From: Patescibacteria group bacterium
GTDB taxonomy: Bacteria; Patescibacteriota; Patescibacteriia; UBA10025; JAHIVO01
Length of the DNA stretch: 64,000 bases
Reading direction: 5' to 3'
NCBI GenBank assembly: GCA_028718605.1
Contig: JAQULM010000002.1
Coordinates: 257,776 to 321,775, forward strand
Below the pieces are notes generated by a model that was given only the letters and a program-made list of their open reading frames with translations, made no database searches and had not been told where the DNA came from. Positions 5,906-64,000 of this stretch are shown here, piece after piece (the first letter of the stretch is position 1; the number at the start of each line of letters is the position of its first letter). The position numbers and the translations under genes were made by a program.

Positions 5906-5949
5906 ATCCGAACGGCATGAGCCGTACGATTGCCTTGACCTGCCCCATC

Positions 5950-10547: not shown

Positions 10548-10576
10548 TTGACAAACGCCCTTTTTTGCGCTATAAT
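10548..10576 (+). promoter_or_regulatory. Consensus sigma70-type promoter: TTGACA, 17-bp spacer, TATAAT.
   Basis: Perfect -35 (10548-10553) and -10 (10571-10576) hexamers. Followed by an A-rich initial transcribed region. A near-identical module is at 61250-61278. Confidence 0.6.
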
Positions 10577-10582
10577 GGTAGT

Positions 10583-10695
10583 AGAAAATAAAAAGCAAAA
10601 GCAAAAAAAGGCTCTTTTGCATCAGGGGACAATCACTTACTCTCGATCCGTCACGCGCATGGCGGCCGGAAGCAAGTGATTGTCCCCGTTTTTTT
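10583..10695 (+). ncRNA. Candidate small RNA (~110 nt) between a consensus promoter and an intrinsic terminator.
   Basis: TSS predicted ~7 nt after the -10. The A-rich 5' part is followed by a 16-bp stem (GGGGACAATCACTTAC...GCAAGTGATTGTCCCC, 10625-10687) and a T7 run. No plausible CDS: the only ATG overlaps the -10 and there is no SD. Confidence 0.3.
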
Positions 10696-10710
10696 GCATA
10701 TAAAAGAAAC

Positions 10711-33677: not shown

Positions 33678-34147
33678 ATACATCGCAGCATCAGAACAGT
33701 ATCAACACTTTATCCTCAACAATCGAAAATATGCAAAAAACCCTAATAACTAACCAAAAAGGCGGCTAAATCGTACTATTTGTTGACGGTTTAGTCCCGC
33801 CAAAAGCGGGATTTTTGTTACTCCGAGCGAAGCGAGGAGTAACAACCCCGAGGGAATCGAGGGGTCCCACAGTTTGAAAGCTCAAAACGAAGAGGCGGCG
33901 GAAATATGGCTGAGGCAACAACCCCGAGAGAGCCGTCGGCGAATCGAAGGGTCCCCAAGCACTGCCGCCCAACGTACTTAATACCAAATATCCGAACTGC
34001 CGATCACTCTATCCTCGATAGAATGGTTCCAGATCAGATCTTTGACCGGACATTAACAACTGAATATGGTAGAACGAGATCTTGTAAGCAAGTTAAGTAA
34101 GTATACTAAGACACAAGGACGCAAGTTCAGTGTTTTAGTGATTGCAA

Positions 34148-37272
<3,125 letters not shown>

Positions 37273-37468
37273 CATATTGCAATCACTAATACGCTGATCT
37301 TTTTAGAATCCGTTCTACCATATGAACAAAGACTACGGTCCGCACCTTATTGCGGTCTTTGTTCTGGTGATAGTCCTCTTCGGACTTCTATTTTACCTGA
37401 CGCCGCTCTCATCCTAAGACCGGTCACCAGTGGCCAGAGAGAACAACCATGGTTCGTTGTTCGCTGGC

Positions 37469-37585
37469 CTCTGGTGATTAAGCACCAGGGTCACACCTGA
37501 TCCCATTCCGAACTCAGTCGTTAAGCCTGGTAGCGCCAATGATACTACGGGGCATACTGTCGGGAAAGTAGGTTATCGCCAGAAC
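37469..37585 (+). rRNA. rrf: 5S ribosomal RNA.
   Basis: Helix I CTCTGGTGAT/ATCGCCAGA. Conserved CCCATTCCGAACTCAG and GGTAGCGCCAATGATACTAC blocks. Confidence 0.8.
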
Positions 37586-49204: not shown

Positions 49205-50362
49205 ATGCAAACAAACGCAGGGACAACAGTCGGAGGAGAAAAATACCTCAACTACAATTGCTGGCTGGTTAAGAATCTCAATTACGCTCCGTACCGGCGC
49301 TGCCAGTACTGCAAGTATCGGTTCCGCAATTGCCTGTTTCTGCAATACCAAATCGTCAGCGTCGCCCTGGCAGTAATTATCTTGCCCCTCTTTCTTCTGT
49401 TTGAAGGAAAAATTTCGGCGCTGGCGATTATATCCGTGTTCGCTTCGATCACGGTGTTCGGGTATTTTTTCAATAAAAGCACGGAAAAAATCATCAAAGC
49501 GCAATTCGCCCAGGAACAGGCTTCCCAAAAATTGAAGGAGCTGTCCGACATGCTGGAAGTGAAAGTCAACGAGCAAACGCAGGACATCATCGCAAAAAAC
49601 GCCCGCTTGGAAAAACTCCTGCAGGTCCGCTCCGAATTTCTGGACGTCGCCTCGCACCAGCTGCGCACGCCGGTTTCCATGATCCGGGGCGTGTTGTCCA
49701 TGATCCGGGACGGCGACCTAGAACATTTACCGAGGGACAAACAGGCGCAGTTCATCGAAAACGCCTGGCAAAAAGGAGCAAAGCTCGACATTATCATCAA
49801 TGATATTCTCGCCGCATCTGAATTCGACACGCAGACATTTATGGTTGATTCGAAAACGCCGACAATCTTCCTGGAAGACGTGGTTGACCAGGTCGTCAAG
49901 GGATTCCAGCTGGAAGCAGAACGCCGCAGCATTGAGCTCGTGTGGCACCCGCCGAAAAAACACTTCCCCAAGGTGAAAGGCCGAGTCAATTTCCTGGAAC
50001 AAGCAATCAGCAATTTAATCAGCAACGCGTTCAAATACACCCCCTCCACCAACATGGTGAAGGAAGCGAGGTCGCGGCGGGACAAGAAAGGCGTGGTGGG
50101 GGTAACCATAAATCAAGTGAAAAACAACATCGTTGTGGGGGTATCTGACAACGGCATCGGCATTCCCAAGGAAGAAATTAAAAAACTGTTCGAAAAATTC
50201 GTCCGTGCCTCGAATGCAACGGCCATGTATACGGACGGAAGCGGATTGGGACTCTTCATCGTGAGGGAAATTGTCGAGGGACACCATGGTAACGTATGGG
50301 TGGAAAGCGAACTGAATAAAGGATCCACCTTTTTCTTCAGTATTCCAGTTGTTAGTAATTAG
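49205..50362 (+). CDS. Sensor histidine kinase (HisKA + HATPase_c) with a Cys-rich N-terminal segment.
   Basis: H-box SHQLRTPVSMI. N-box NLISNAFKYT. G-boxes DNGIGIP and GSGLGL. N-terminal CxxxxxxxxxxxCxxCxxxxxC before the TM helices. Confidence 0.8.
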   Translation: MQTNAGTTVGGEKYLNYNCWLVKNLNYAPYRRCQYCKYRFRNCLFLQYQIVSVALAVIILPLFLLFEGKISALAIISVFASITVFGYFFNKSTEKIIKAQFAQEQASQKLKELSDMLEVKVNEQTQDIIAKNARLEKLLQVRSEFLDVASHQLRTPVSMIRGVLSMIRDGDLEHLPRDKQAQFIENAWQKGAKLDIIINDILAASEFDTQTFMVDSKTPTIFLEDVVDQVVKGFQLEAERRSIELVWHPPKKHFPKVKGRVNFLEQAISNLISNAFKYTPSTNMVKEARSRRDKKGVVGVTINQVKNNIVVGVSDNGIGIPKEEIKKLFEKFVRASNATAMYTDGSGLGLFIVREIVEGHHGNVWVESELNKGSTFFFSIPVVSN

Positions 50363-50408
50363 GCTGTTAGATTTTAGTTATTAGGTTATTAAGATACATG
50401 GGAATCCT

Positions 50409-50786
50409 ATGGATACAAAACTAAAAATCCTGCTCATCGAGGATGATACCGACCAGGTATTTCTTTATCAGAGTAAATTTGAGCTGGAGGGTTTTGAAAT
50501 GCTCTCCTCCCGATACGGATCAGAGGGGCTTCGGATTGCCGGCGAGCAAAAACCGGATATCATACTTCTTGACCTGGTGCTCATCGGTGAAAGCGGCCTG
50601 GATGTGCTGGCAAACCTGAAAAAAAACGCCCCCGTGAAGAATATCCCCGTGATAATCCTCACGAATCTGGAGCGTGACGACGCCAAAGCAAAAGCAAAAG
50701 AGCTGGGCGCCGCGGACTTCCTCACAAAAGCGAATATGATGCCGTCGGACGTAGTCAGGAGGATCAGGGAAATTTTGAAAAAGTGA
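50409..50786 (+). CDS. Stand-alone response regulator receiver domain (CheY-like).
   Basis: LLIEDD phospho-acceptor pocket, DLVLIGESG and conserved Lys region. No output domain. Confidence 0.8.
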   Translation: MDTKLKILLIEDDTDQVFLYQSKFELEGFEMLSSRYGSEGLRIAGEQKPDIILLDLVLIGESGLDVLANLKKNAPVKNIPVIILTNLERDDAKAKAKELGAADFLTKANMMPSDVVRRIREILKK

Positions 50787-51004
50787 CCATTCGCCAATAC
50801 GGACATCAATTGAGCGGCTCATGAAGCCTGCATCGTCTGTCCATGCATGATTCAAATTCCGGGGACGACAATGACACGAACGTGCTGTTCGCCATGCTGT
50901 TCATCGGCCCAGGGCTGCTGTTCCGGTACGCCGGTCCCAAGAAAAACGACCGCGAGACGCCAGAAGCCCGATTCGATAACAAAAAATAATTAACGCCATT
51001 TACT

Positions 51005-51817
51005 ATGAATATCCACAATAAGACAATCGTCATCACCGGCGCCGGCAGCGGTATTGGCCGGGCACTCGCGCTGTTGCTGCTTAAAAAAAACGCCAACGTC
51101 GCGGCTGTTGATTTGAACGAAAAAAGCCTGGCTGAAACCAAAAAGCTGGCCTACGAACAGGCTCATCATATCTCCACCCACGTGGTAAATATCACCGACT
51201 GGACAGCAGTCGAAACGCTGCCAAACGCTCTGATTGCCCAGCATGGAAATATTGACGGCCTGATCAATAATGCGGGCATTATCCAGCCTTTCATCAAAGT
51301 GAATACCCTTGATTACGAGGCCATAAACCGAGTAATGAGCGTCAATTTTTTCGGTGCCGTATATATGATCAAAACGTTCCTCCCCCTGCTCCTCAAGCGC
51401 CCCGAAGCGCATATTACCAACATTTCCAGCATGGGAGGCTTCTTGCCCGTGCCTGGTCAGAGCTTTTACGGGGCGTCAAAAGCGGCTATTAAACTACTGA
51501 CCGAAGGATTATACGCGGAATTAAAAGACACCAATGTTCATGTTAGTGTCGCCTTTCCCGGCGCTACGAATACCAACATCTCGGCTAATTCTGGGGTTAA
51601 TAGTCCGAACATGCCAGCTGGCGATACAAAAAAACAAAATATCCCCATGCAGTCAGCTCAAACTGCCGCCAAAATCATTCTTGATGGAATGGAAAAGAAT
51701 AAATTCCAAATATTCGTCGGCAGAGATTCAAAAATGATGAATTTCCTCTACCGGCTCAGCCCAGTATACGCAACGAACCTCATCGCCAAGAAAATGCGGT
51801 CGCTCCTGCCGGAATAA
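51005..51817 (+). CDS. Short-chain dehydrogenase/reductase (SDR) family oxidoreductase.
   Basis: TGAGSGIGRA Rossmann motif. NNAG. YGASKAA catalytic motif. Confidence 0.8.
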   Translation: MNIHNKTIVITGAGSGIGRALALLLLKKNANVAAVDLNEKSLAETKKLAYEQAHHISTHVVNITDWTAVETLPNALIAQHGNIDGLINNAGIIQPFIKVNTLDYEAINRVMSVNFFGAVYMIKTFLPLLLKRPEAHITNISSMGGFLPVPGQSFYGASKAAIKLLTEGLYAELKDTNVHVSVAFPGATNTNISANSGVNSPNMPAGDTKKQNIPMQSAQTAAKIILDGMEKNKFQIFVGRDSKMMNFLYRLSPVYATNLIAKKMRSLLPE

Positions 51818-51829
51818 AAGGTCGAATCT

Positions 51830-51868
51830 AAAACCGCCCCGTCGGATGACAGGGCGGTTCTGTTGTTG
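51830..51868 (+). terminator. Bidirectional terminator formed by a hairpin-repeat family member.
   Basis: AACCGCCCCGTC-GGAT-GACAGGGCGGTT, flanked by T-runs on both strands. Confidence 0.5.
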
Positions 51869-51888
51869 CGTTTTTTCGCGTATACGGT

Positions 51889-52716
51889 TTACTGCGCTGA
51901 CATCGTGATCGGAACTGACTCCGCCTCAGTGCCATTCACGATTAGTCTGAGATTGTACGAACCGGCGGCGGGAGGAAGGCTAAAGCAGCAGGAACCGTTA
52001 GAACCTTGCTGCAAGTTACTGTGCTGGCTCTGCCCTTCGACATCTGCGCCTGTGCTGTCGGTAAAACTGTGCGCGAACGTTGTGCCAGCAGCAAAATTAC
52101 CGGTAACGCTCAGGCCGAACAGGTCGCCAACGGTAAAGCTGGTGGTGGTTTCATACATATCGGTCGGCGTAAATGTCGTTCCAGCGGGGATGCGCTGCAA
52201 TTCAACCTTCGTGATCTGGTTTGCAGCATTTGTATTTGAGCCAGCTGCGGCATTGGCATTCAACGCGGTATTCGCATTAGCCGCCGTGTTCGCATTGGTA
52301 CTTGTATTAATGACGGTAACGGCAATGCTGCCGCAACTGGTGTTGAGGCACGTGAGCTGGTAGGTGCCGCCCGGGTCGTCGAGGTTTATCCGCGTGCCAA
52401 ACACGCCATTCGTTGATTGGGTAATGCCTTTGAATTCGAAATCGACCGGCTGGCCATTGTCGGTGAGGCGGATTTCCATCGCATCGCCAGCATAAACCGT
52501 TATGGTTTTATAATTGAGCAGGCCGTTTACCAATTGAAGGCTGAATATCTTTGTACCGTTCTCTGTGGTATAGGGCGCTTCGGTGACCACCGTGTTGGTG
52601 TTTTTGTTTGCGTTGGTCTTTGGCGTATTCGACGTTTTCTTGCCGCAACCGGAAACGGTTATGGCAACAGCGATAATAAGAACCGGCACGAGAACATACC
52701 ATGGTTTCATTCGCAT
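51889..52716 (-). CDS. Lipoprotein with an Asn/Thr/Ala-rich low-complexity region.
   Basis: Signal peptide plus lipobox (ITVSGCG). Confidence 0.4.
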   Translation of the reverse strand: MRMKPWYVLVPVLIIAVAITVSGCGKKTSNTPKTNANKNTNTVVTEAPYTTENGTKIFSLQLVNGLLNYKTITVYAGDAMEIRLTDNGQPVDFEFKGITQSTNGVFGTRINLDDPGGTYQLTCLNTSCGSIAVTVINTSTNANTAANANTALNANAAAGSNTNAANQITKVELQRIPAGTTFTPTDMYETTTSFTVGDLFGLSVTGNFAAGTTFAHSFTDSTGADVEGQSQHSNLQQGSNGSCCFSLPPAAGSYNLRLIVNGTEAESVPITMSAQ

Positions 52717-52832
52717 ACGATGCCTCTCCTAATATTAATATTTAACAATACTACTCTATTCTACACTACATGCCGATTTTTTCAAAATAAAGGGCAACTA
52801 TAGTATACTGGGGGTATTGCGGAAACAATACT

Positions 52833-53168
52833 ATGCCAAGCATCATAACAAGCGCCTTCGAACACGCTACCGCCCGCACCTTCCTCGACGGCAGCACGCG
52901 GTTGGTCATTACTATTGGGAATCTGAAAATCGGCCGTGGCATTTACAGGCCCGGCTGGAAATGGTCGTTACACGCCGGCCCCCAGACCGGCAAGCCGTCC
53001 GAACGGCACGTCGGCTATGTCATTTCGGGCACGATGCGGGTACAGGGCACTGACGGCCACGAACAAACAATAGGCCCTGAAACGGCATTCGAGGCCGCGC
53101 CAGGGGCTGATGCCTGGGTTGTCGGCAACGAGGACTGCGTGGCGCTCGATTTTGAATTCATTCATTAA
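52833..53168 (+). CDS. Cupin-domain protein.
   Basis: Small beta-barrel pattern (GYVISGTMRVQGTDGHE...WVVGNEDCVALDF). Confidence 0.5.
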   Translation: MPSIITSAFEHATARTFLDGSTRLVITIGNLKIGRGIYRPGWKWSLHAGPQTGKPSERHVGYVISGTMRVQGTDGHEQTIGPETAFEAAPGADAWVVGNEDCVALDFEFIH

Positions 53169-54136
53169 TGTTGAATCCTATGAACGTGCGCAGTGCTGTA
53201 CGACGAATCGCGGTAGCCTGCCTCCCCTGCTTGATGGCTGTCATCATATCGGGGTGTGGCAGCAAAACCGCTGCCCCGACGGCTGCTAACCAAACCAACG
53301 CCGCGCGCGAATCAGAGGCGGGATGGCAGGAACACGGCGCGGCGATCACCGGCGAATACGCTGACGCCGAGATCACTCCGCTCGGCGACGGCCGGTACCG
53401 CATGTACTACTCGGCCGAACCGGAAACAGCAGGCTTCCAAGGCCAGGTGTATTCGTCTGTCTCGACTGACGGCATCCGCTGGGCCCAGGAGGAAGGCGTA
53501 CGGAAATCGTGGGCCATATTCCCCGACATCATTACCCTGGCGGACGGAACGTACCGGATTTACTTCCAGAATGCCGGCAGCATCAAAAGCGCGCTCTCCA
53601 CTGATGGAATGACCTGGGCTGACGAGGACGGCGTGCGGATTGATACGAGCGAAACCGGATATGCTCTGGACACTGTTGGAGCACAAACGACCACGCGGCT
53701 GGCGGACGGAACGTACGTGATGGTGTACCGAGGCACGATCAATGAAAAATACCAGACAACCGAGGAGATTCCGAATTCGACAACGCAACTTTTCTTTTGG
53801 GCGACGTCCGCAGACGGCCTCACATTTGAAAAGAAAGGTGTGGCAATCGACTCGAGGAATGAAACGCTCTACGGGCTCGCGGATGGCGCAGAATGGGCGA
53901 CATGGGACAATGCCGAGCTGCGCCTGTACTTCTGGAGCTACGCGGGCGTTTTCCATGTTGTCTTTTCCAATGGAGTATTTTCCGAACCAGTGTTTGACTG
54001 GACGAATAACACCGACAGCCGCGCCAAGTTCGCACCCAATCCGCCATGCGACCCGACCTTTGCGAAAATCAATGGGACGTGGTACATGTACTATGGCCAG
54101 CATGCGAAAGGCGTTTATTACGCAACATTCCAATAA
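53168..54136 (+). CDS. Lipoprotein with repeated DG-YR-Y blocks, probably a beta-propeller/GH-like fold.
   Basis: Lipobox IISGCG. Repeats DGRYRMYY, DGTYRIYF, DGTYVMVY and NGTWYMYY. Confidence 0.4.
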   Translation: MLNPMNVRSAVRRIAVACLPCLMAVIISGCGSKTAAPTAANQTNAARESEAGWQEHGAAITGEYADAEITPLGDGRYRMYYSAEPETAGFQGQVYSSVSTDGIRWAQEEGVRKSWAIFPDIITLADGTYRIYFQNAGSIKSALSTDGMTWADEDGVRIDTSETGYALDTVGAQTTTRLADGTYVMVYRGTINEKYQTTEEIPNSTTQLFFWATSADGLTFEKKGVAIDSRNETLYGLADGAEWATWDNAELRLYFWSYAGVFHVVFSNGVFSEPVFDWTNNTDSRAKFAPNPPCDPTFAKINGTWYMYYGQHAKGVYYATFQ

Positions 54137-54300
54137 CCTGCACCTCGAAGGGCGCTGCCTGATCAAAAGCACCACACCATCCCCCGTCTTCCCTCCCAAA
54201 CTTACAACTTTCTTCCTTTTTCAATACCCCCTTCCGGCAACGTAGTACCAAAAACCCTCTCCTCCTGGTTGATTAACTATTAACCACTGACAGCAATTCT

Positions 54301-54765
54301 ATGAAAGCCCTCATCATCTACGACTCCCTGTACGGCAACACGGAAAAAATTGCGCGTACGATCGGCGCCGCATTAGGTGGCGGCACTCGCGTTCTCAAAG
54401 TGAACGAAGCTTCTGCTGCTGAAACAAACGCATGCGAACTGCTCATCATCGGTTCGCCAACCCACGGCGGTAGGCCATCGCAGCCAATGCAGCAATTCCT
54501 CAACCAAATCCCCGCTGGTGCATTGACGAGCATCCGTGCGGCAGCATTCGATACTGGCAACACGCCCGAAGGCCAGGGTGGGCTCATCCGCATAGTCATT
54601 AAATTCTTCGGCTACGCGTCAAAGCGGATCGCCGGTATCCTCAAATCAAAGGGTGCGATAGCCGTCGCGGCAGAAACATTCTTCGTGCTCGGCAAAGAAG
54701 GTCCACTCAAGGACGGCGAGGTGGAACGGGCACAGGGCTGGGCGAAAAAACTTATAACACCATAA
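54301..54765 (+). CDS. Flavodoxin-like protein.
   Basis: MKALIIYDSLYGNTEKIA flavodoxin N-terminus. IGSPTHGG. Confidence 0.7.
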   Translation: MKALIIYDSLYGNTEKIARTIGAALGGGTRVLKVNEASAAETNACELLIIGSPTHGGRPSQPMQQFLNQIPAGALTSIRAAAFDTGNTPEGQGGLIRIVIKFFGYASKRIAGILKSKGAIAVAAETFFVLGKEGPLKDGEVERAQGWAKKLITP

Positions 54766-54777
54766 TCCAGGACGGCT

Positions 54778-55959
54778 GTGGATACATTTTCAAAAGACAA
54801 ACGGTACATCGCCCGTGAAAGCGCGCCAATCCCGCTCAATATCGTACGGACCGACGGCAGCTGCATGTACGATGCGCGGGGCAAACGCTACATCGATTTC
54901 TACGTCGGGTGGTGCGTTGGCAATATCGGATGGACGAACGCGCGTGTGCGCGAAGCAAGGCGATCCTTCCGGGGGCCGGATTATTTCAGCCCGACGTACG
55001 CGAACAGGCTGTGGGCTGATCTCGCGGAACTGCTGGTAAAAATTACGCCCGCGGGTCTCAATAAAATATACTTCACGACCGGCGGCACTGAGTCGGTCGA
55101 GTACGCACTCCAGGCGGCGATGTCGCATACAAAACGCGCTGAATTTATTTCAATCGAGGGTAGTTACCACGGCCACTCGATTGGTGCGATGAGCGTCGGC
55201 GACTCTGAATTCCGCAAACACTATTCGAACCTCCTCCCCCGCTGCCACAAGATCAAGGCGCCGCTCGACAGGAAAGCCGCGCAAAAAATCGTCCAGCTGC
55301 TTAAAGGCGGGCGCGTTGCCGCGTACATTTCCGAGCCTGTCGTTTGCAACCTCGGCGTTGAAATACCGACACGTGACTATTTCAAAACAGTCGCCCATGC
55401 GTGCAAACGGTACGGCACCGTACTCATCATCGACGAGGTTGCGACGGGTTTTGGCAGGACCGGCACGCTGTTCGGCGCTGAACACTACACGCTCAACCCG
55501 GACATTCTGTGCATGGCCAAGGGCCTGACCGGCGGATACAGCGTGCTGGGCGCGGTGGCGATGACAAACGCGGTTGCGAAATCAATGCAATGGAACTTCA
55601 GCTTTTATTCGACATTTGGCGGGCACCCGCTCAACACGGCGATCGCGCTCGAGAACGTGCGGTATATTATTAACAATAAAAATCAATTACTGTCGAACGC
55701 CAACCGGATCGGCGGATATTTCGTTCAGCGGCTCACGGCTATGGAATTTCGGCACCAGCCCGTAATCCACACGAAAGGCTTGGCGATCGGCATCCACTTC
55801 CCGAACACGGCGTACCCGAGCGCCATCAAGCGCCGCTGCCGCGAAAACGGGCTGCTCATCGCGGGCGCAACGCCCGAATCAATCATCATGTTCCCAGCGC
55901 TCAACCTGCCCCACGGGCTGGCGCGGGAAGGGCTCGATATTTTTGAGCAGTGCCTCTAA
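54778..55959 (+). CDS. Class III aminotransferase (acetylornithine/GABA/putrescine aminotransferase family).
   Basis: LIIDEVATGFGRTG and the PLP-Lys region MAKGLTGGY. Confidence 0.8.
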   Translation: MDTFSKDKRYIARESAPIPLNIVRTDGSCMYDARGKRYIDFYVGWCVGNIGWTNARVREARRSFRGPDYFSPTYANRLWADLAELLVKITPAGLNKIYFTTGGTESVEYALQAAMSHTKRAEFISIEGSYHGHSIGAMSVGDSEFRKHYSNLLPRCHKIKAPLDRKAAQKIVQLLKGGRVAAYISEPVVCNLGVEIPTRDYFKTVAHACKRYGTVLIIDEVATGFGRTGTLFGAEHYTLNPDILCMAKGLTGGYSVLGAVAMTNAVAKSMQWNFSFYSTFGGHPLNTAIALENVRYIINNKNQLLSNANRIGGYFVQRLTAMEFRHQPVIHTKGLAIGIHFPNTAYPSAIKRRCRENGLLIAGATPESIIMFPALNLPHGLAREGLDIFEQCL

Positions 55960-55973
55960 CTGACCACTGAAGT

Positions 55974-56165
55974 ATGCTTCTGCCAACGCGCCACGACATC
56001 AATCCCGGAACTCGGGTTGCGATCGTGCAAAAACAGGACCAACGCACCGGTAAATTGACACAAGGCACTGTCAGAGATATCCTAACAAAATCACCGACCC
56101 ACCCGCACGGCATCAAGGTGCGGCTCGAAACCGGCGAGATTGGGAGGGTACAAATGATTGTATAG
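55974..56165 (+). CDS. YwbE-like small protein (DUF2196).
   Basis: 63 aa. GTVRDILTKSPTHPHGIKVRLETGEIGRVQ pattern. Confidence 0.4.
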   Translation: MLLPTRHDINPGTRVAIVQKQDQRTGKLTQGTVRDILTKSPTHPHGIKVRLETGEIGRVQMIV

Positions 56166-56235
56166 TAGCCAACTAATAAAAGGGCTGTATACTATATATA
56201 ATCACTTTTAACTTTTAACATCGCGAAATAACAAG

Positions 56236-57423
56236 ATGGCAAACGACAATGGGAGCGGCAATGGCCTTGAACGGTATATGACCCGAGAGGAGTTTGAAAA
56301 GATCAAACAATTCGGCAAAGGGAAAGAAACTCCCTTTCTCGTCGTCAGCCTCTCGAAGGTTGCGCAGAAATACGACGAGCTGAAAAAAAACTTCCCGTAC
56401 GGCAAAATTTACTTCGCGATCAAGGCGTGCCCCATCGATGAGGTCATCTCCCTCCTGCACGCACGAGGGTCGTGCTTCGACGTCGCCTCGCCGAACGAAA
56501 TCGACAAAGTGCTCCGGCTCGGGGTCCCTCCGGAAAAAATCAGCTTCGGGAATACCATCAAGAAAGAACGGGACATCGCGTACGCGTACCAGAAAGGCGT
56601 CCGGCTTTTCGCCACGGATGCGCCGTCTGACGTTGAAAAACTCGCACGCCAAGCCCCCGGGAGCAAAGTGTTCATGCGGATCATGTGCGAGGGCGGGAAC
56701 GCGGACTGGCCTTTGTCAAAAAAGTTCGGCGCGCATCCTGATCTGATCTACAAAATCGCTCAGCGTGTGCAGGAAGCGGGATTGATCCCCTACGGCGTCT
56801 CGTTCCATGTCGGAAGCCAGCAGCGGGACATCGGCCAGTGGGACAATGCCATCGCACAAACTAAATACCTCTTCGAGTCCCTCAGAAAAGATAAAGGCAT
56901 CACCTTGCGCATGATCAACCTGGGCGGCGGGCTCCCGGCCAGTTACATCCAGCCGACGCAGCCGCTCACCACGTACGCCAAAGAAATTACGCGGTTCCTC
57001 CGTGAGGACTTTGGTGATAATATGCCTGAGATTCTCATCGAGCCAGGAAGAAGCATTATGGCCGAGGCTGGCGTTATCGTCACTGAGATCGTCATGGTCT
57101 CAAAAAAATCTACGTCCGCAAACATCAGCTGGGTATACTTCGACGCCGGCAAATTTAATGGGCTCATCGAAACCATGAACGAATCGATCAAATATCCCAT
57201 CTTCGTTGACGGCCCGAAATCAAAGGAAACCAAAGAAGTCATCCTTGCCGGCCCCTCGTGCGATTCTATGGACACCCTGTATGAAACCTACAAGTACAAG
57301 CTGCCGAAGGACATCAAGGAGGGCGACCGCGCATACGTCCTTTCGACGGGAGCATACACCGCTTCCTACTGTTCAGTTTTTTTCAACGGCTTCTCCCCAA
57401 TGAAGTTTTACGTGATGGATTGA
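56236..57423 (+). CDS. PLP-dependent Orn/Lys/Arg/DAP decarboxylase family protein (eukaryotic-type ODC fold).
   Basis: IYFAIKACP (PLP-Lys), FDVASPNE, FHVGSQ, GGGLP and the C-terminal GAYT motif. Confidence 0.7.
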   Translation: MANDNGSGNGLERYMTREEFEKIKQFGKGKETPFLVVSLSKVAQKYDELKKNFPYGKIYFAIKACPIDEVISLLHARGSCFDVASPNEIDKVLRLGVPPEKISFGNTIKKERDIAYAYQKGVRLFATDAPSDVEKLARQAPGSKVFMRIMCEGGNADWPLSKKFGAHPDLIYKIAQRVQEAGLIPYGVSFHVGSQQRDIGQWDNAIAQTKYLFESLRKDKGITLRMINLGGGLPASYIQPTQPLTTYAKEITRFLREDFGDNMPEILIEPGRSIMAEAGVIVTEIVMVSKKSTSANISWVYFDAGKFNGLIETMNESIKYPIFVDGPKSKETKEVILAGPSCDSMDTLYETYKYKLPKDIKEGDRAYVLSTGAYTASYCSVFFNGFSPMKFYVMD

Positions 57424-57454
57424 TCGTCGCAGCCGAATAGTAAGTTTTCCAACT

Positions 57455-57487
57455 CAAAAGAACTGCACCATGCGGGCAGTCCTTTTG
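57455..57487 (+). terminator. Bidirectional terminator between convergent genes.
   Basis: 12-bp stem CAAAAGAACTGC/GCAGTCCTTTTG. Confidence 0.5.
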
Positions 57488-57497
57488 AAAATGCTTT

Positions 57498-58638
57498 TTA
57501 CTGGTTGGCCGGTGGTTGTTGCGCTGGAGTGCCTGGCTTTTTCTTCCGCATGACCATGACGAGCACGATTACAATTACGAGCAGCAGCACAGCGCCGCCA
57601 ATGATGTAATACATCATCATCGAATCCTCATCCTCGTCATCATCGGTGGTTGCTGCCGTATTGCTGTTCCTATTCGCCGTAGCCGCCGTGGTGTTGGTGT
57701 TTGTATCCAACGGCGCGATAAGATTTTGGTTTACGGCTTCAGCGCTGTTGGTATTGGCATTCCCCGACGTTGCGGCATTCTGATTGACTGCCGTTACGCT
57801 GCCGTTGGTATTCGTTGCCGCCGGAGCCGCTATCACGAACTGATACTCGGCTGGCGTCTTCCCTAAGTAGAAATACGAAGCAACTTTTATAAAAACTTTG
57901 GCGCCACTCGTTGCCTGCACGGTGCTCGTAACGATGCTGCCTTCGTTGTTGCCTATCTGCGAGTCAACCTCCGTACGATTCGCATCATAGATGGCGAGCT
58001 CCACCTCCATATCGGTTGGTGGGGTCACGGTAACGATGTACGCACCATCCGCCGGTGGCACGAAGGCGAACATATCCGCCGTATCGGTACCGCCCTCGTC
58101 GTCGCCCGTCACGTACCCTTTCATCGTTCCGGCACTGACGCTCAGCGCGTTTTCGAACGTCGCTGGTGCATCCTGAGTGGTTCCCGCGTCGAACCGGTCG
58201 GTAATGGTGAGCGTCAGATTGTACGACGTTACGCCATCATCATCCGAAGCCAGTTTCAGGTAATACTTATATGTCGGCTGGTCGCCATTAACCAGCCAGT
58301 CAGCGGTAAGGGTAACCGACGTGTAGTTTGCGTCAAATTCCTCCACGACCTGATTCCGGTCCTGGTCGTACAGAGCGATCGTACTGATTGTCCCCGTCTC
58401 GATCGCGGACGTCAACATCGCCTTCGCGGTTACCTGCTGCCCCTGGCCGAGCGTCACATAGAAATACTGCGTTGTATCCCCGGTAATCGCTCCGCCAGTA
58501 TACGTACCTGCCTTGAGTTCGACGGCAGTATCCATGCTGCTTCCGCCGGTGATTGCTGCTGCATTGCAGTTCGCTGCTGAGAACAGAGCGACGAACGCCA
58601 TGCCAGCCACCGCCATTAGGAAGATTTTTTTTGCCATA
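57498..58638 (-). CDS. Cell-surface protein with PPC-like (pre-peptidase C-terminal-like) domains and a C-terminal TM anchor.
   Basis: Signal peptide. DTAVELKAGTYTG...QYFYV pattern twice. Asn/Thr-rich linker. C-terminal hydrophobic segment plus KKK. Confidence 0.4.
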
Positions 58639-58753
58639 GGCCTCCTGTATTTAATAATTACACGCATGATCATTATACGGTAGCGGCTGCCTCACCGTCA
58701 AATAAATTGTGCCGGTTCGCCAGCAGTGCGTTTTTCTGGTACCCTTACAAGCA

Positions 58754-59869
58754 ATGGTTACCATCAAGGAAATCAATACTCCTGATGAAATCAAGCAGTT
58801 CGTGATGTTCCCGTGGCGGATCTACGCGAATGACCCGAACTGGGTGCCACCGCTCATCGGTGAACAGCGCGCTTTTTTTAATCCCGAGAAAAATCCGTAC
58901 TATCGCCATTCAAAAGTATTGCTGCTCATGGCATATCGCGGGAACGAACCAGTCGGCCGGCTGTCAGTGCACGAGAACACATTGCATGTAAAAAAATACA
59001 ATGAAAAAGTAGGCTTCTTTGGATTTTTTGAATGCATTGACGATTTCGAAGTTGCAAAAGCGCTGTTTGATTACGCGAAAATTTGGCTCAAAAAGCTTGG
59101 GTATGAAAAGATGCGCGGACCGGCAAATTTCTCCGTCAATGGCGAGTACTCCCTGCTCGTTAAAGGATTTGACTCACCGCCCGCCATCATGATGACGTAC
59201 AACCCGCCGTACTATGAAACATTATTGACGCAGTACGGGTTCCAGACATCCCAGGAAATGTATGCGTACCAAATGTACACGGAGGCGGGGTTGCCAGAGG
59301 ACGTGCTCAAACGCGCAGCTGAAGCAGAGCGCAAACACCCGGAATTCATCGTGAGAAAAATGAGCAAGCTCCATCTCGACCGCGAAACAAAGATTGTCCA
59401 GGAGATTTATAACGAAGCGTGGAACGAAAACTGGGGCGCGATATGGTTTTCTGATGAAGAAATCAAGGCGCTCGCGAAACAATTGGTCCTCATCATAGAT
59501 GAGGATATCGCATTTATTGGAGAGGTCAATGGCAAGCCAATCGGCTTCTCGCTCTCAATACCGGACGCAAACCAGGCATTGAGAGTGGCAAATGGCAGGC
59601 TCTTCCCCTGGGGGCTCATGAAAATGCTCTGGGCAAAACGGCATATCAAAAACGTTCGTGTATTGGTTATGGGCGTGCTCAAGGCATACCGGCACCAGGG
59701 ACTTGATACTGTGTTCTACAAAAAAACGTATGAAGAGGGCCTGAAGAAAGGTTACCATGCTGCCGAGGGGTCGCTCGTAAATGAATCCAACACGCCCATG
59801 CGCCGGGTGCTGGAAAAGCTCGGGGCGAAAATTTACAAGACGTACCGGATGTATGATCTCACTTTTTGA
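58754..59869 (+). CDS. Large GNAT-family N-acetyltransferase-like protein.
   Basis: About 370 aa. GNAT-like core around VLVMGVLKAYRHQGLDTVFY. The start ATG at 58754 is preferred to the track's GTG at 58709. Confidence 0.45.
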   Translation: MVTIKEINTPDEIKQFVMFPWRIYANDPNWVPPLIGEQRAFFNPEKNPYYRHSKVLLLMAYRGNEPVGRLSVHENTLHVKKYNEKVGFFGFFECIDDFEVAKALFDYAKIWLKKLGYEKMRGPANFSVNGEYSLLVKGFDSPPAIMMTYNPPYYETLLTQYGFQTSQEMYAYQMYTEAGLPEDVLKRAAEAERKHPEFIVRKMSKLHLDRETKIVQEIYNEAWNENWGAIWFSDEEIKALAKQLVLIIDEDIAFIGEVNGKPIGFSLSIPDANQALRVANGRLFPWGLMKMLWAKRHIKNVRVLVMGVLKAYRHQGLDTVFYKKTYEEGLKKGYHAAEGSLVNESNTPMRRVLEKLGAKIYKTYRMYDLTF

Positions 59870-59930
59870 CCTCCCCCGTCATTCTGCTACAATACGAATG
59901 CATAATCATTAACCACAAAGGGACCCCCAT

Positions 59931-60488
59931 ATGAAAAAGACATATGAAAACCTGCTGAAAGCAATCGCAGGAGAGTCAATGGCCCGGAATAAGTACACTT
60001 TTTTCGCTAAGCAAGCGCGCAAAGAAGGTTACGAATGGATCGCACGCGTCTTTGAAGAAACAGCGGATAACGAACGCGCCCATGCCGAGGAAGAGCTGGA
60101 ATACATCCCGGAAAAAACGGAGATGACCAATACATACGACATCCACCCGGTTGCCGACACGCTGACAAACCTGAAACATGCAGCCGAGGGGGAAGAATAC
60201 GAGTTCGGCACCATGTACCCTGATTTCCAAAAAGTTGCCGAGGAAGAAGGAGAGAAAGACATCGCTGAATTATTCAAGCGAATTGCGATGGTCGAGGAAA
60301 AACATGCAGAACGGTATCGCATCCTCCTCAAAAAACTCGAAGACGGCACGCTGTACGCAAGCGAAAAGGAAATCGAATGGAAATGCGAGAATTGCGGATA
60401 CATCCATAAGGGTAAAAACGCGCCGGGCAAATGCCCGCTCTGCAAAAAAGCCCAAGGGTGGTACCGCGGGCTCGGTATTGTCCGATAA
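59931..60488 (+). CDS. Rubrerythrin.
   Basis: Ferritin-like E..EXXH pairs (ESMARNKY, ADNERAHAEE, EGEEYEF, MVEEKHAERY) and a C-terminal rubredoxin-like CENCGY...CPLCK. Confidence 0.85.
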   Translation: MKKTYENLLKAIAGESMARNKYTFFAKQARKEGYEWIARVFEETADNERAHAEEELEYIPEKTEMTNTYDIHPVADTLTNLKHAAEGEEYEFGTMYPDFQKVAEEEGEKDIAELFKRIAMVEEKHAERYRILLKKLEDGTLYASEKEIEWKCENCGYIHKGKNAPGKCPLCKKAQGWYRGLGIVR

Positions 60489-60506
60489 ACAGCGACTGGA
60501 AATCCA

Positions 60507-60884
60507 GTGCAAGCCCAAAACCGGACACCGCTTGATTCCCACGAAATAGCGCACCGCCCATTCACCGGTACGGCGTGGTTGCACCTGTGTGCAATTATCG
60601 TTATCTGGGCATCGCCGTTCCTGTTCCGCTGGCCTGTTATTGCCGCAGGCATCGCGCTCTATTTCATCCAGATACTCTGGCTTGGCGACTGCGTGCTGAC
60701 ACGGCAGCAGTTCAAAACACAGCGCCGAAGCGTAACATTCTACTACTACCTCCTCACTCGGCTCGGATTCACGCCAGACGGGTACCGCGTGCGGTTCGTC
60801 GCTGACTACGTCATGCCGCCGATCATCCTGGGAGCAAGTATCGTATGGCAGGTGGTTTTCGTGAAAGAACCTCTGATTTGGTAA
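60507..60884 (+). CDS. Small membrane protein, hypothetical.
   Basis: Three hydrophobic helices. GTG start. Confidence 0.3.
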   Translation: MQAQNRTPLDSHEIAHRPFTGTAWLHLCAIIVIWASPFLFRWPVIAAGIALYFIQILWLGDCVLTRQQFKTQRRSVTFYYYLLTRLGFTPDGYRVRFVADYVMPPIILGASIVWQVVFVKEPLIW

Positions 60885-60947
60885 ATATTAACCAGGCCAG
60901 ATGTATGAAACGTCGGCCTGGTTACACAATCGCGCACGTGCCTTCGA

Positions 60948-61205
60948 TCATCCAGGAACATGTTCGCGTGCCCGCACCGGACACCTCTCCACGAGGCATA
61001 ATTCACATGCTTCGTGCCATGTTGAACTTGCAGCAAACAAGATAGCTGAGTCAGCAGGAAAGGTGCCTGAGCCATCCCACCGATGTACGCACCCCTGAGG
61101 GAAGAAATCACGGACGGCAAGGAGCGCCCGGACTGACTGCCGTGTTTTATCTGATACTGGCATTGGCTTCCTCCGCAATGTAGCGAGTACGATTTTAATT
61201 TTCAT
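60948..61205 (-). CDS. Hypothetical small protein (85 aa), possibly leaderless.
   Basis: Minus-strand TTGACA-17-TACACT lies immediately (2 nt) upstream of the ATG. GAAGG lies 8 nt upstream. No homology recognised. Confidence 0.25.
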   Translation of the reverse strand: MKIKIVLATLRRKPMPVSDKTRQSVRALLAVRDFFPQGCVHRWDGSGTFPADSAILFAASSTWHEACELCLVERCPVRAREHVPG

Positions 61206-61249
61206 CAGTGTACCTTCGTGCCTTTAAATTGTCAATCACTCGTATGTGA

Positions 61250-61278
61250 TTGACAAAAACCTTTTTTTCCGCTATAAT
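61250..61278 (+). promoter_or_regulatory. Consensus promoter TTGACA-17-TATAAT, second copy of the module at 10548.
   Basis: Perfect hexamers. The -35 is embedded in the palindrome TTGTCAATCAC-N7-GTGATTGACAA (61229-61257). A-rich leader. About 190-nt 5' UTR before the large repeat-protein gene. Confidence 0.55.
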
Positions 61279-61467
61279 AACGTTAGAAATCAAAAATAAA
61301 AATCAGAAAAATAATGTCTAATGCCTATCACATGCGCAGTGGCGAGGGGAATTGCATTTGGATAGGAGGTACTGCCATACGAGCGGTGTACGCTAGATAC
61401 TGCCCGAAGGTTTTTTATATAATTCATTTTCATATACTACTACATTTAAAAAAATAATCGTATCACT

Positions 61468-64000
61468 ATGATTTCACGGAAAGCTCTCAAATTAATACAC
61501 TCCGCCGCATCTATCGTGACGATTCTCGCCATGATTGGGCCATTCTCATTCCAGGGCATGCCGATCGCGCAGGCAGCTGGCGCAGGCAGCGCAAATATCA
61601 CGGGTGTCGTGACAGAACCAGACGGCACCACGCCCGTTGCCTACGCCTTTATCAATATCCATACGAGCACCTGGGACTACTATCTAGGGGCATCGGCGAA
61701 TGAAGCTGGCGCTTTTACCTTCTCCGACGTGCCTGCGGGTTCCTATATACTCGAAGTATGGGCGAACGACGATACATACATTGACCCGCCGAGCCAAACC
61801 ATCACGGTTCCTTCGAGCGGCACGCTCGATGTCGGCACGCTCCGACTAAAAAATCCGAATGTCACTGGTGTTGTCCTGAAAATGGATGGTGTTACTCCCG
61901 TCGCGACTGCAGGGCTCAATCTGCACAACAGTGACTGGTCATATCAACGTTCGGCATCAACGAATGCGGATGGCGAATTTGCCTATTATCTCGGCGCAAG
62001 TGGAACATATACGCTGGAAGTGTGGGCAAATGACCCCGATGGGGCAAACCCGCCCCCGACAGTGTTTAATTTCACCGCAGGCGGGTCAAAATCATTCACG
62101 GGGGCAAACGCGTTGACCCTTCAGGCGCCGAGCGTCCGAGGTAAAATTCTCCTGCCTGACGGCATAACCCCGGCACCGTACGCTAATGTCAGCGTTCATG
62201 ACGAATACTATGCGTACGAAAATTCCGACTGGGTGACGACTGATGCTGATGGCCTTTTTAAAACGAAAAGCCTTGAGGCCGGCACGTATACGATTGAAAT
62301 GACGAACCTCTCTGGTGCTGGCGAGGGGCTCCTTGCGCCCGACGCGCTCACCGCAACGGTAACTGCGGGAACGACGAACACCTACTATCTCACCCACCCC
62401 ATTGTGCTCCAGGAGGCAAAAAAAACCATCCGCGGCACCGTGACAACGCCTGACGGAACGCCTATCACTGACGGGATAGTAAATGCGTGGAGAATGGATG
62501 GAGGCATGGGCAACGCTACAGCAACAACCGACAGCAAGGGGCGATACTCCCTCCTCGTCGGCATGGGAAAATGGCAGGTTATGGTGAACCCTACCTGGAC
62601 CGATGGACAACCAACATGGGGGTACAACGAAATGCCGGTAACTGTAAAATTCGAGCAAGCAAATACAATCGCCGAAACAAAGACCGCCAATTTCGAAGTG
62701 ACAGAGTACACCGCAACAATTACCGGCCGCGTCCTCAATCCAAACGGTTCGATACCGGAGATGAATGAAGTGAACGTAAACGCGTGGAACCCTGGCGGAG
62801 GAGGCGGTGCGTGGGGCCAGATTGATGACGGCGGATATTTTTCCTTGCGAGTCGGGGCAGGCACGTATCAAGTGGAAATTATGCCAAATAACGAAGAGTA
62901 TGGAGCGCCTGAAATCGGACTCATAACTGTCGCTGACGGGGAAACAAAAAATGTCGGCACAAACCGCCTCGTGGTAAAGGATGAATTTATTACCGGCAAA
63001 GTGATCGATTCCAACGGCACGCCGCTCGCGGACCAAGACGTAAACGCATGGAAAGCAACCGGCTCGGGCTGGGGCTGGACGATGACGGATGAGAATGGGG
63101 AATTTACGCTCGGAGTGACGTCAGGTGCGTGGTTCGTCGACGTGATGACGGGCGGCGGCTCTACGGGCGCGGGGGGTGGAGACGGGACGGGAGAAACCGT
63201 ATACGTGCGAACTGATCCTCCACAAAAAATTCTCCTCGACGAAGACGAAACGGTCAGCAATATACTCTTTGAGCTTGCTATCGCAGACGCGACAATCAAC
63301 GGCACCGTACAGGATGACAGCGATACGGTGCTCTCGGATCTGAATGCGTGGGCTGAAGCAACTGACGCCAACCGAACGATGGGTTCGGGAATGGGCGACG
63401 AGGGATATAGCGGCCTGGGGGGTGAGGTGCAGAACGGTAGCTTCTCCATCAAGGTACCTGCGGGCACGTACAATATTAGCGTCTTCATGCCATGGGGATC
63501 TGATTATACGGCCTCCTCAGCCACCTCAGTCACGGTCGATTCTGGGGAAACGTATAATGGCGCTGTCGTGACGGTACTGCCGAATAATGCAACAATCAGC
63601 GGTTCGCTCGTCGATAAAAACGGTGACCCAGTAACCGACGTATGGGGCGAAGTTTTTGCAGACAACGGCATGGGCGGCAACCAATGGGCCCAATTCGAGG
63701 ATGGAACGTATGAGCTGAATGTATCCGCCGGCGAATGGAATATCGGATACTGGACTGACCCGCTGTCCGGGTACCTCCCGAGCAATTCCCATGGTGACTC
63801 AGTGGCTGCGGTCGCTGACAAAATAGTAACGCATGACCTGACCCTGCTCCAGGCTGACTCAACCATCACCGGCACAGTGCTGGACCCGGACGGCAATCCT
63901 CTGAAAAACGTATGGGTTTCGGCAGATACCGAGCTTGGCGGAAGGCAGAGCGGTGCTGATGACTCTCTGTTCTACGACCCCATGTTCAACCAGGGTAATA
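61468..64000 (+). CDS. Very large secreted protein made of tandem CarboxypepD_reg-like (prealbumin-like) repeats. The 5' partial continues beyond the window and is not in the supplied ORF track.
   Basis: I verified codon by codon that the frame is open from the ATG at 61468 to 64000 (844 codons). Signal peptide MISRKALKLIHSAASIVTILAMIGPFSFQGMPIAQA. At least nine repeats of about 85 aa share the pattern [IV]xGxVxxxxGxPxxxAxVxxxxxx ... DxxGxFxxxxxxGxYxxxxxxxG (e.g. ITGVVTEPDGTTPVAYAFINI...AGAFTFSDVPAGSYILEVWANDD). Confidence 0.75.
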   Translation, partial: MISRKALKLIHSAASIVTILAMIGPFSFQGMPIAQAAGAGSANITGVVTEPDGTTPVAYAFINIHTSTWDYYLGASANEAGAFTFSDVPAGSYILEVWANDDTYIDPPSQTITVPSSGTLDVGTLRLKNPNVTGVVLKMDGVTPVATAGLNLHNSDWSYQRSASTNADGEFAYYLGASGTYTLEVWANDPDGANPPPTVFNFTAGGSKSFTGANALTLQAPSVRGKILLPDGITPAPYANVSVHDEYYAYENSDWVTTDADGLFKTKSLEAGTYTIEMTNLSGAGEGLLAPDALTATVTAGTTNTYYLTHPIVLQEAKKTIRGTVTTPDGTPITDGIVNAWRMDGGMGNATATTDSKGRYSLLVGMGKWQVMVNPTWTDGQPTWGYNEMPVTVKFEQANTIAETKTANFEVTEYTATITGRVLNPNGSIPEMNEVNVNAWNPGGGGGAWGQIDDGGYFSLRVGAGTYQVEIMPNNEEYGAPEIGLITVADGETKNVGTNRLVVKDEFITGKVIDSNGTPLADQDVNAWKATGSGWGWTMTDENGEFTLGVTSGAWFVDVMTGGGSTGAGGGDGTGETVYVRTDPPQKILLDEDETVSNILFELAIADATINGTVQDDSDTVLSDLNAWAEATDANRTMGSGMGDEGYSGLGGEVQNGSFSIKVPAGTYNISVFMPWGSDYTASSATSVTVDSGETYNGAVVTVLPNNATISGSLVDKNGDPVTDVWGEVFADNGMGGNQWAQFEDGTYELNVSAGEWNIGYWTDPLSGYLPSNSHGDSVAAVADKIVTHDLTLLQADSTITGTVLDPDGNPLKNVWVSADTELGGRQSGADDSLFYDPMFNQGN

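Follow-up and report, generated by a model that had tools for sequence, protein, structure and literature searches.

The window analysed here is a stretch of 64,000 nucleotides from contig JAQULM010000002.1 of a Patescibacteria group bacterium. The frame that opens at position 61468 on its plus strand covers the 5' half of a gene that stands alone and encodes a secreted surface protein of this Patescibacteria bacterium. The complete product consists, in this order, of a predicted Sec signal peptide, ten TTR (CarboxypepD_reg) units, a 148-amino acid (aa) module, an Ig-like domain and an eight-bladed FG-GAP propeller. By fold, motif and conservation the module is well supported as an autoproteolytic domain of the GAIN/MAIN type (MAIN, Microbial Autoproteolysis INducing), with autoproteolysis itself being predicted. 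Taken as a whole, we consider it probable that the gene encodes a self-cleaving, force-releasable surface or adhesion protein. The part inside the window alone is an ordinary repeat surface protein of a Patescibacteria metagenome-assembled genome (MAG), already deposited though unnamed. With the off-window half taken into account, a releasable ectodomain that is cut off by the protein itself becomes a likelier mechanism than a passive repeat adhesin. Judged from sequence and structure models, the new aspect would be a GAIN/MAIN-type module in a phylum without an earlier report of one, together with a propeller in place of a recognised anchor.

The gene and the domains of its product

Direct in-frame translation of positions 61468-64000 (plus strand) gave 844 sense codons and zero stops. 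This confirmed the sequence-only reading, which had proposed an uninterrupted frame from the ATG at 61468 to the window end and had named a stop codon as the check. The frame is missing from the open reading frame (ORF) track because the ORF lister skips ORFs that run off the source. The gene had been called unlisted, which is true of the track only; an NCBI record of the identical protein exists under the title 'MAG: hypothetical protein PHF98_04580 [Patescibacteria group bacterium]', encoded on a 386-kb contig.

The public contig L001 (28 kb) was retrieved by exact-match look-up of the neighbouring rubrerythrin gene and showed 100% identity to window positions 50001-64000 across 14,000 bases. 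It supplied the downstream sequence that had been asked for, with the stop after 1668 codons. Codon statistics were trained on 16 clear genes of the window. The plus frame scored a codon log-likelihood of +0.29 bits per codon, compared with 0.14-0.41 for the training genes. The protein has a mass of 176 kDa and a pI of 4.05, is cysteine-free and is rich in Thr, Gly, Ala and Asp. Its parts, with the gene itself, are the following:

L001 11538-16544 (would be window 61468-66474), plus strand: full gene, 1668 aa; the window holds the first 844 codons
61468..61575, plus strand: Sec-type signal peptide, aa 1-36 (heuristic prediction)
61591..61854, plus strand: TTR unit 1, aa 42-129 (Pfam and unit hidden Markov model (HMM), independent E-value (i-E) 5e-31)
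61855..62127, plus strand: TTR unit 2, aa 130-220 (unit HMM, i-E 7e-29)
62128..62421, plus strand: TTR unit 3, aa 221-318 (unit HMM, i-E 3e-26)
62422..62712, plus strand: TTR unit 4, aa 319-415 (unit HMM, i-E 2e-30)
62713..62982, plus strand: TTR unit 5, aa 416-505 (unit HMM, i-E 1e-31)
62983..63288, plus strand: TTR unit 6, aa 506-607, with a Gly-rich insertion (unit HMM, i-E 1e-28)
63289..63588, plus strand: TTR unit 7, aa 608-707 (unit HMM, i-E 7e-26)
63589..63858, plus strand: TTR unit 8, aa 708-797 (unit HMM, i-E 1e-30)
63859..64000, plus strand: TTR unit 9, aa 798-899 (unit HMM); cut by the window end at aa 844, it ends at L001 14234
L001 14235-14489, plus strand: TTR unit 10, off the window (unit HMM)
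L001 14490-14933, plus strand: predicted MAIN/GAIN-B-like module, aa 985-1132 (148 aa), with H1120-F1121-T1122 at 14895-14903
L001 about 14955-15221, plus strand: Ig-like domain, Glucodextran_B-like, aa ~1144-1218 (Pfam)
L001 15270-16541, plus strand: eight-bladed FG-GAP propeller, aa ~1245-1668 (Pfam and AlphaFold2 model)

The N-terminus is predicted by heuristics to be a cleaved Sec signal peptide. It has a basic n-region (R4, K5, K8), the h-region AASIVTILAMIGPFSF and a predicted cleavage site A-Q-A/A (here and below, a slash marks the position of the cut). Residues 6-28 are the sole hydrophobic segment in all 1668 aa, with a core of ~16-17 residues that contains Gly-Pro. The A-x-A motif ahead of the first TTR unit recurs in orthologues. 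Thus the earlier claim of a signal peptide is plausible.

In the window frame, the Pfam profile PF13620 (CarboxypepD_reg) matched 8 stretches with 148.7 bits (cut-off 32.3, E=6e-44), and many related prealbumin-fold families matched with scores below that of PF13620. With a self-built unit HMM, the count was 9 for the window frame and 10 for the whole protein (aa 42-984). Both searches therefore bear out the proposed array of at least nine carboxypeptidase-regulatory-like repeats, the ninth being cut by the window end. The repeat length of ~85 aa has to be corrected, as the units measure 85-102 aa with a mean of about 94. The ten units are diverged, with a mean pairwise identity of 24% and a maximum of 42%. 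No DNA-level tandem repeats were found in the TTR array. Recent or hypervariable DNA tandem repeats were thereby ruled out for this array; the propeller blades show only weak DNA similarity of 60-90%. The description of the coding strand as GC-rich and repetitive was likewise an overstatement (GC 0.49-0.58, no DNA tandem repeat in the TTR array).

About 15 full-length homologues were found, with 1536-1874 aa and 32-66% identity. Named records among them carry the labels Patescibacteria group, Candidatus Kerfeldbacteria or 'bacterium'. The closest is encoded on a 680-kb scaffold of another Patescibacteria MAG. This sister genome and the NCBI name of the identical protein agree with the assumed small-genome source. 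Every part of the protein aligns one-to-one across the orthologues (occupancy ~1.0, 35-54% identity), which marks the array as an architecture that was fixed long ago, in contrast to a fast-changing tandem repeat. Assignment as a surface or adhesion protein is suggested by the signal peptide, the size above 1500 aa and the adhesion domains; for Patescibacteria proteins that combine these three features, this is the standard reading (PMC13059738).

The C-terminal propeller was identified by Pfam (FG-GAP_3, 62.5 bits against a cut-off of 26.9; FG-GAP also above threshold). It contains eight sequence repeats of the form [F/W]xxAY..FRGG...D-x-D-G-D...PNVRVY and five Ca-loop-like motifs of the type D-x-D/N-x-D/N. 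An AlphaFold2 model of aa 985-1668, built with 12 homologues, had a mean predicted local distance difference test (pLDDT) value of 86, with values above 90 over most of the propeller. The modelled propeller has 32 strands, which form eight four-stranded blades. Hence FG-GAP scores above threshold, but with 8 repeats and 8 blades the domain differs from the seven-bladed integrin-alpha type. Foldseek placed the PL11 lyases YesW/YesX and 4cag at the top of the structural matches and also found CRTAC1, with TM-scores that are low for this multi-domain model. The ECOD class of the YesX/YesW PL11 propeller is 8-bladed. Profile matches of the propeller to the PDB comprised CRTAC1, the heads of integrin alpha-V, alpha-4 and alpha-5, and PL11 lyases. 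The matches to the PL11 lyases (E 2e-5 to 5e-4) covered ~75 residues of the repeat consensus, that is one to two blades, and no Pfam match to RGI_lyase or RGL11 was found in the full protein.

The predicted GAIN/MAIN-type module

Searches of the module against Pfam and NCBIfam gave no significant match; PGF_pre_PGF remained sub-threshold with E=0.003. Nevertheless, the module is among the best-conserved stretches of the protein across orthologues. Its AlphaFold2 model reached a mean pLDDT of 92.7 and has a beta-sandwich of the GAIN-B/ZU5 type. In model numbering, H136-F137-T138 (H1120-F1121-T1122 of the protein) lies in a tight turn between strands 129-134 and 139-144, the penultimate and the last strand. 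TM-scores (TMq) from Foldseek were 0.58-0.64. Structural comparison of the module gave the following scores:

DNAI7/CASC1: 13.5
CD97 GAIN: 12.6
ankyrin ZU5: 11.9 / 11.8
UNC5B ZU5: 11.4
CELSR1 GAIN: 11.3
BAI3 GAIN: 9.5
CARD8 FIIND: 8.8
NLRP1 FIIND: 7.7
Nup98 autoproteolytic domain: 5.7

MAIN domains are GAIN-B-like folds in bacteria and archaea (Brogan & Rudner, bioRxiv 2026, 10.64898/2026.05.12.724683). They cleave at H-x-(S/T), and in B. subtilis YfkN Edman sequencing located the cut after the F of HFS, ahead of the S. The H-F-T turn of the module described here corresponds to the beta-turn at which GAIN and MAIN domains undergo self-cleavage. After cleavage the fragments of MAIN proteins remain associated, as was shown experimentally in the same preprint (10.64898/2026.05.12.724683). 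The preprint surveyed RefSeq Select, and its text and the accessible supplement files do not mention Patescibacteria.

Conservation of the motif was evaluated at increasing distance. In a 12-sequence alignment H1120 and F1121 were invariant, and the next residue was Thr or Ser in all 12. A profile search among 1.84 billion proteins returned 4351 cluster representatives at E<=1e-3. From the best 150 of this search and the earlier matches, 180 module instances were assembled, and 177 of them carry H-[FLM]-[ST] (HFT 125, HFS 32, HLT 18, HLS 1, HMT 1). When 34 modules with less than 42% BLAST identity to one another were aligned (alignment A4), only three columns were invariant, the His being one of them.

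The 12-sequence profile found nothing credible among PDB sequences. The 34-sequence profile reached the GPS region of ADGRF1 (E=0.004) and aligned tdHF-TkFaiv onto CTHL-TSFSIL. Thus the equivalence of the motifs is supported by sequence as well as by fold. Profile A4 also detected Bacillota MAG proteins (E 2e-10 to 2e-17) in which the module, with FTTNHF/SKYAV, is directly followed by three SLH domains. This order of HF/S and then SLH is the architecture of the MAIN preprint and links the Patescibacteria module indirectly to the MAIN family. When the module profile was used in a word-indexed search for homologues, just 8 fragments came up, and none was a named YfkN-like protein.

CarboxypepD_reg repeats and the module are common to all sampled relatives and are then followed by varied tails. 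These include fn3 domains (P0055, P0051, P0052), an fn3-free tail with LPXTG and a transmembrane (TM) segment (P0066), SLH domains (P0063) and others. The tails behind the module were classified in the 178 proteins whose modules are closest: an FG-GAP propeller was present in 48, LPXTG plus TM in 8, a C-terminal TM segment in 8 and an SLH-like region in 4. A short, possibly incomplete tail was present in 21, and 89 were unclassified.

One relative from the profile search, P0059, has a different make-up. It combines a signal peptide, TTR/Big_1 domains and a MAIN-like module (HF/T) with one TM segment at aa ~789-814 and a cytoplasmic ArsR-type winged helix (HTH_20, E=4e-10). Its sequence suggests a transcription factor that is tethered to the membrane and carries a self-cleaving, GAIN-like domain outside the cell, and this may point to a signalling use of MAIN. 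According to the preprint, no signalling use of MAIN domains is known yet (10.64898/2026.05.12.724683).

Upstream region and other features of the window

The features upstream of the gene and on its opposite strand are listed here:

61229..61256, no strand assigned: 11-bp perfect palindrome (TTGTCAATCAC-6-GTGATTGACAA; 11 pairs, loop of 6, then a T-run)
61250..61278, plus strand: sigma-70-type promoter TTGACA-17-TATAAT, 12/12, with a T-rich spacer and GCTATAAT
61285..61467, plus strand: putative 5' leader of ~183 nt with an A-rich start, assuming a transcription start ~7 nt past the -10 box
62092..63896, minus strand: antisense shadow ORFs 62092-63036, 62385-62864, 62868-63488 and 63504-63896, not genes

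The consensus promoter with a 5' untranslated region of ~190 nt was correctly recognised in the earlier reading; we found a 12/12 match and predict a leader of ~183 nt. A second, weaker match (10/12) is located at 61394-61423. Promoters were also present at two orthologous loci: L003 has a 12/12 site whose -10 box ends at -175, and L005 has an 11/12 site whose -10 box ends at -135. The flanking genes differ among the three promoter-bearing loci (window/L001, L003 and L005), and a conserved operon or partner genes were ruled out on these grounds. The combination of a T-rich spacer with GCTATAAT occurs at other promoters in the window as well and is therefore a lineage-wide promoter form, not one unique to the surface-protein gene. 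The palindrome overlaps the -35 box, so that TTGACA lies back to back on both strands; the minus-strand copy has a 10/12 partner. It is not conserved at the orthologous locus L003 and may be a candidate operator or a terminator of upstream transcription.

A structured RNA or riboswitch in the leader was considered and dropped. No credible Rfam match was obtained, and the fold energy was no better than that of shuffled sequences (z=0.26; orthologue leader z=0.34). Past the first ~25 nt, similarity to the L003 leader was marginal (score 25; shuffles 18.2+/-2.4, maximum 27). A 47-aa ORF at 61314-61457 within the leader looks non-coding and was rejected (codon log-likelihood -0.285, no Pfam match). 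No Shine-Dalgarno sequence precedes the ATG at 61468. Since only 2/16 well-supported window genes have a recognisable one, this is normal for the genome, which appears to start translation largely without it.

The four long minus-strand ORFs had codon log-likelihoods of -0.04 to -0.18, compared with +0.29 for the plus frame, and no Pfam match was found in them. ORF 62092-63036 is the codon-aligned antisense of the sense frame and stays open because the sense frame lacks TTA, CTA and TCA codons between 62092 and 63121. These data bear out the view that the ORFs are artefacts, and for the annotation it follows that the gene on the plus strand should be kept as real and the antisense ORFs removed. 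Minus-strand ORFs around 60.0-61.2 kb also look non-coding by codon statistics and gave no Pfam matches.

Several other parts of the window were noted. Two probable surface proteins are encoded on the minus strand, an 826-aa Beta_propel protein at 11452-13932 (PF09826, E=1e-158) and a 773-aa protein with three lamin-tail domains and PKD domains at 18655-20976. Neither contains any of the TTR, MAIN-like or FG-GAP units of the 1668-aa protein. A 391-aa ORF at 57498-58673 (minus strand, codon log-likelihood +0.36) had no Pfam match above threshold; weaker ones of the mucin/TM-like, low-complexity kind lie close to the C-terminus, and the product is probably one more membrane or surface protein. 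The plus-strand region 10548-10700 contains a further perfect promoter (TTGACA-17-TATAAT, again with the T-rich spacer and GCTATAAT form). It is followed by an A-rich start and by a hairpin with a 14-bp stem (GGGGACAATCACTT...AAGTGATTGTCCCC) and a T-run. Neither a downstream plus-strand ORF of >=120 aa nor a credible Rfam match was found for this region, which is a candidate for an orphan small RNA of ~115 nt. Genes for 23S and 5S rRNA occupy 34142-37584 (plus strand), and no 16S gene accompanies them anywhere in the 64 kb analysed. At 3143 nt the 23S match is longer than the model (2925 nt), which suggests ~220 nt of insertions. At locus L005, just upstream of the orthologue P0004, a 663-aa protein is encoded at 5849-7840 (plus strand). 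With its weak prepilin-type N_methyl signal and Laminin_G_3 it would be a pilin-like adhesin, and it is not conserved in the other loci.

Possible mechanism, alternatives and known systems

We propose the following sequence of events. The protein would be exported through Sec and its signal peptide removed, as its sequence suggests. Assisted by the His, the side chain of T1122 would then attack the carbonyl of F1121, and an N-O acyl shift followed by hydrolysis would cut the chain; motif, fold and characterised relatives argue for this chemistry. The products would be a 115-kDa N-fragment with the TTR array and most of the module, and a 58-kDa C-fragment with the last strand, the Ig-like domain and the propeller. 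These two fragments would be held together only by their shared beta-sheet, with the last beta-strand in the sandwich. Mechanical load could pull them apart, for instance if a host cell or a surface holds one of the ends. For an organism with a presumed life attached to other cells, the protein would thus be a detachable adhesin. With less certainty, the C-terminal Ig-like domain and propeller may form the cell-proximal end with a non-covalent hold on the cell's own envelope, and the TTR array may be a displayed, sheddable ectodomain for attachment and detachment. The role of the propeller as a non-covalent, cell-proximal anchor is weakly suggested by analogy, because relatives with TTR repeats and the module carry SLH, LPXTG or TM anchors at that position. 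The further idea that a self-cleaving tether and a propeller which replaces every known wall anchor amount to a lineage-specific, force-sensitive coupling of the envelope to the 115-kDa ectodomain is put forward tentatively, and we regard it as rather doubtful at present. If it were true, host attachment could be broken, or signalled, mechanically, and regulated detachment in episymbiotic bacteria would have its first molecular candidate in this protein, which would also add a new type of non-covalent envelope anchor.

Several points weigh against a self-cleaving, releasable surface protein. The signal peptide was judged by heuristic criteria only. Recognised anchors were searched for in the full protein, and there was no LPXTG motif, C-terminal TM segment, lipobox (zero Cys), SLH domain (PF00395) or prepilin-type leader. 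The C-terminus reads ...FRGGVTTATTL and no hydrophobic window follows aa 28, so the protein does not resemble sortase-anchored, MSCRAMM-like proteins. It also lacks the SLH domains that its relatives P0063 and L015/L018/L019/L022 do carry. Signal peptide and ectodomain of the canonical MAIN architecture are thus present, and a recognised anchor after the module is absent. At the sequence level, MAIN membership is suggested indirectly, via the Bacillota relatives and not via the validated YfkN. The cut between F1121 and T1122 in the Patescibacteria family is a prediction from motif, fold and characterised relatives. No conserved neighbours were found among L001, L003 and L005, where the unknown up- and downstream proteins are unrelated, and no partner or anchor protein is suggested by the neighbourhood. 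Finally, the topology could be mirrored, with the propeller as the distal, released head. In two FG-GAP example rows in the accessible part of the supplement of the MAIN preprint (10.64898/2026.05.12.724683), an FG-GAP/PL11 propeller is N-terminal to the module, as cargo; on the strength of these rows the propeller could be the distal, released part.

The same domains could also build an adhesin that is never cut. Here the TTR array would be a stalk, the module a structural ZU5-like element, the propeller a distal, integrin-alpha-like ligand-binding head and the N-terminus an uncleaved signal anchor. The domain set is typical of adhesins, a C-terminal anchor is lacking, and the propeller profile matches the integrin alpha-V, alpha-4 and alpha-5 heads and includes the five Ca-loop-like motifs. 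But the invariant His, and H-x-S/T in 98% of modules from more than 170 diverged proteins at the turn equivalent to the GPS, are hard to explain for a structural spacer. The short N-terminal segment (~16-17 hydrophobic residues with Gly-Pro), followed by the conserved A-x-A, is typical of a cleaved signal peptide, and the propeller has 8 blades and not the 7 of integrins. We therefore consider an uncleaved adhesin unlikely. To a comparable degree we doubt that the protein is a major envelope or S-layer-type structural protein, that is an abundant lattice or coat protein and not a dedicated adhesin. What speaks for this is the perfect consensus promoter with its long leader, with promoters also at two orthologous loci, the stand-alone gene, and an acidic (pI 4.05), Cys-free and Thr/Gly/Ala/Asp-rich product. 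Relatives with the same cassette carry SLH domains; moreover, S-layers are reported to be common among Patescibacteria, and Dehalococcoides reportedly has an S-layer protein with a beta-propeller (10.1101/2024.05.28.596244). However, high abundance is presumed, other promoters of the window have the same form, and the protein has neither SLH nor another lattice-anchoring module. Such a role is in any case compatible with self-cleavage, so that it is no exclusive alternative.

A secreted polysaccharide-active enzyme, with the propeller as a PL11-like rhamnogalacturonan lyase or a related enzyme and the TTR array as a carbohydrate-binding part or spacer, seems highly improbable to us. The top Foldseek matches are indeed PL11 lyases (YesW/YesX/4cag), weak profile matches to these lyases exist (E 2e-5 to 5e-4, one to two blades), and Bacillota MAIN proteins often carry such lyases. 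Yet at the sequence level the match is limited to ~75 residues of the repeat consensus, the TM-scores are low owing to the multi-domain model, an RGI_lyase/RGL11 Pfam match is absent, and the fold is common to all FG-GAP propellers. We favour a self-cleaving, force-releasable surface or adhesion protein. Attachment and release of ultra-small episymbionts are largely unexplained beyond type IV pili, and this conserved family of 1.5-1.9-kaa surface proteins is a concrete candidate with a predicted site between F1121 and T1122. It would extend the recently described MAIN domains to Patescibacteria, and the binding partner of the propeller becomes the question. The entry PHF98_04580 could be upgraded from 'hypothetical protein' to 'CarboxypepD_reg repeat / MAIN-domain / FG-GAP propeller surface protein'.

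The closest known systems are the MAIN proteins, in which a signal peptide is followed by adhesion or enzyme domains, the MAIN domain and a surface anchor (sortase signal, SLH or wall-binding domain; 10.64898/2026.05.12.724683). The protein described here shares with them the signal peptide, the large size (176 kDa; family mean 158 kDa) and an N-terminal array of adhesion-type beta-sandwiches, CarboxypepD_reg being on the list of associated domains in the preprint. It also shares a module of GAIN-B/ZU5 fold whose last strand is preceded by a turn with H-F-(S/T), and Bacillota relatives found with the module profile show the canonical order of module and then SLH. In contrast to MAIN proteins, an Ig-like domain and an eight-bladed FG-GAP propeller follow the module, and there is no sortase signal, SLH, wall-binding domain or TM segment. 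The nucleophile is predicted to be Thr, whereas it is Ser in YfkN; Thr is the majority in this subfamily, and the preprint demonstrated that Ser and Thr are interchangeable. Cleavage was shown for YfkN and is predicted here.

Similarity to the GAIN domain (subdomain B/GPS) of eukaryotic adhesion GPCRs extends to the position and chemistry of H-hydrophobic-T (alignment to HL/T of ADGRF1, E=0.004) and to a large adhesion ectodomain N-terminal to the module. Unlike these receptors, the protein has no helical GAIN-A subdomain, no GPS cysteines (zero Cys) and no seven-transmembrane region downstream. The ZU5/FIIND proteins (CARD8, NLRP1; ankyrin, UNC5B) differ in being cytosolic and eukaryotic, with a death-domain context. 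Cleavage is absent from several ZU5 domains, among them those of ankyrin and UNC5B.

With large surface proteins of Patescibacteria, such as those of the Absconditicoccaceae (PMC13059738), it has in common the size above 1500 aa, a signal peptide, integrin/FG-GAP and Ig-like domains and a presumed function in host attachment. A GAIN/MAIN-like module is undescribed in those proteins, whereas the protein reported here has a fixed order of ten TTR units, module and propeller. The propeller resembles the integrin alpha head, CRTAC1 and YesW/YesX in its FG-GAP_3/FG-GAP matches, its D-x-D-x-D-G Ca-loop-like motifs and its fold. With eight blades it is similar to PL11 and unlike the 7-bladed integrin alpha, and it is placed at the extreme C-terminus, after a module that is predicted to cleave itself.

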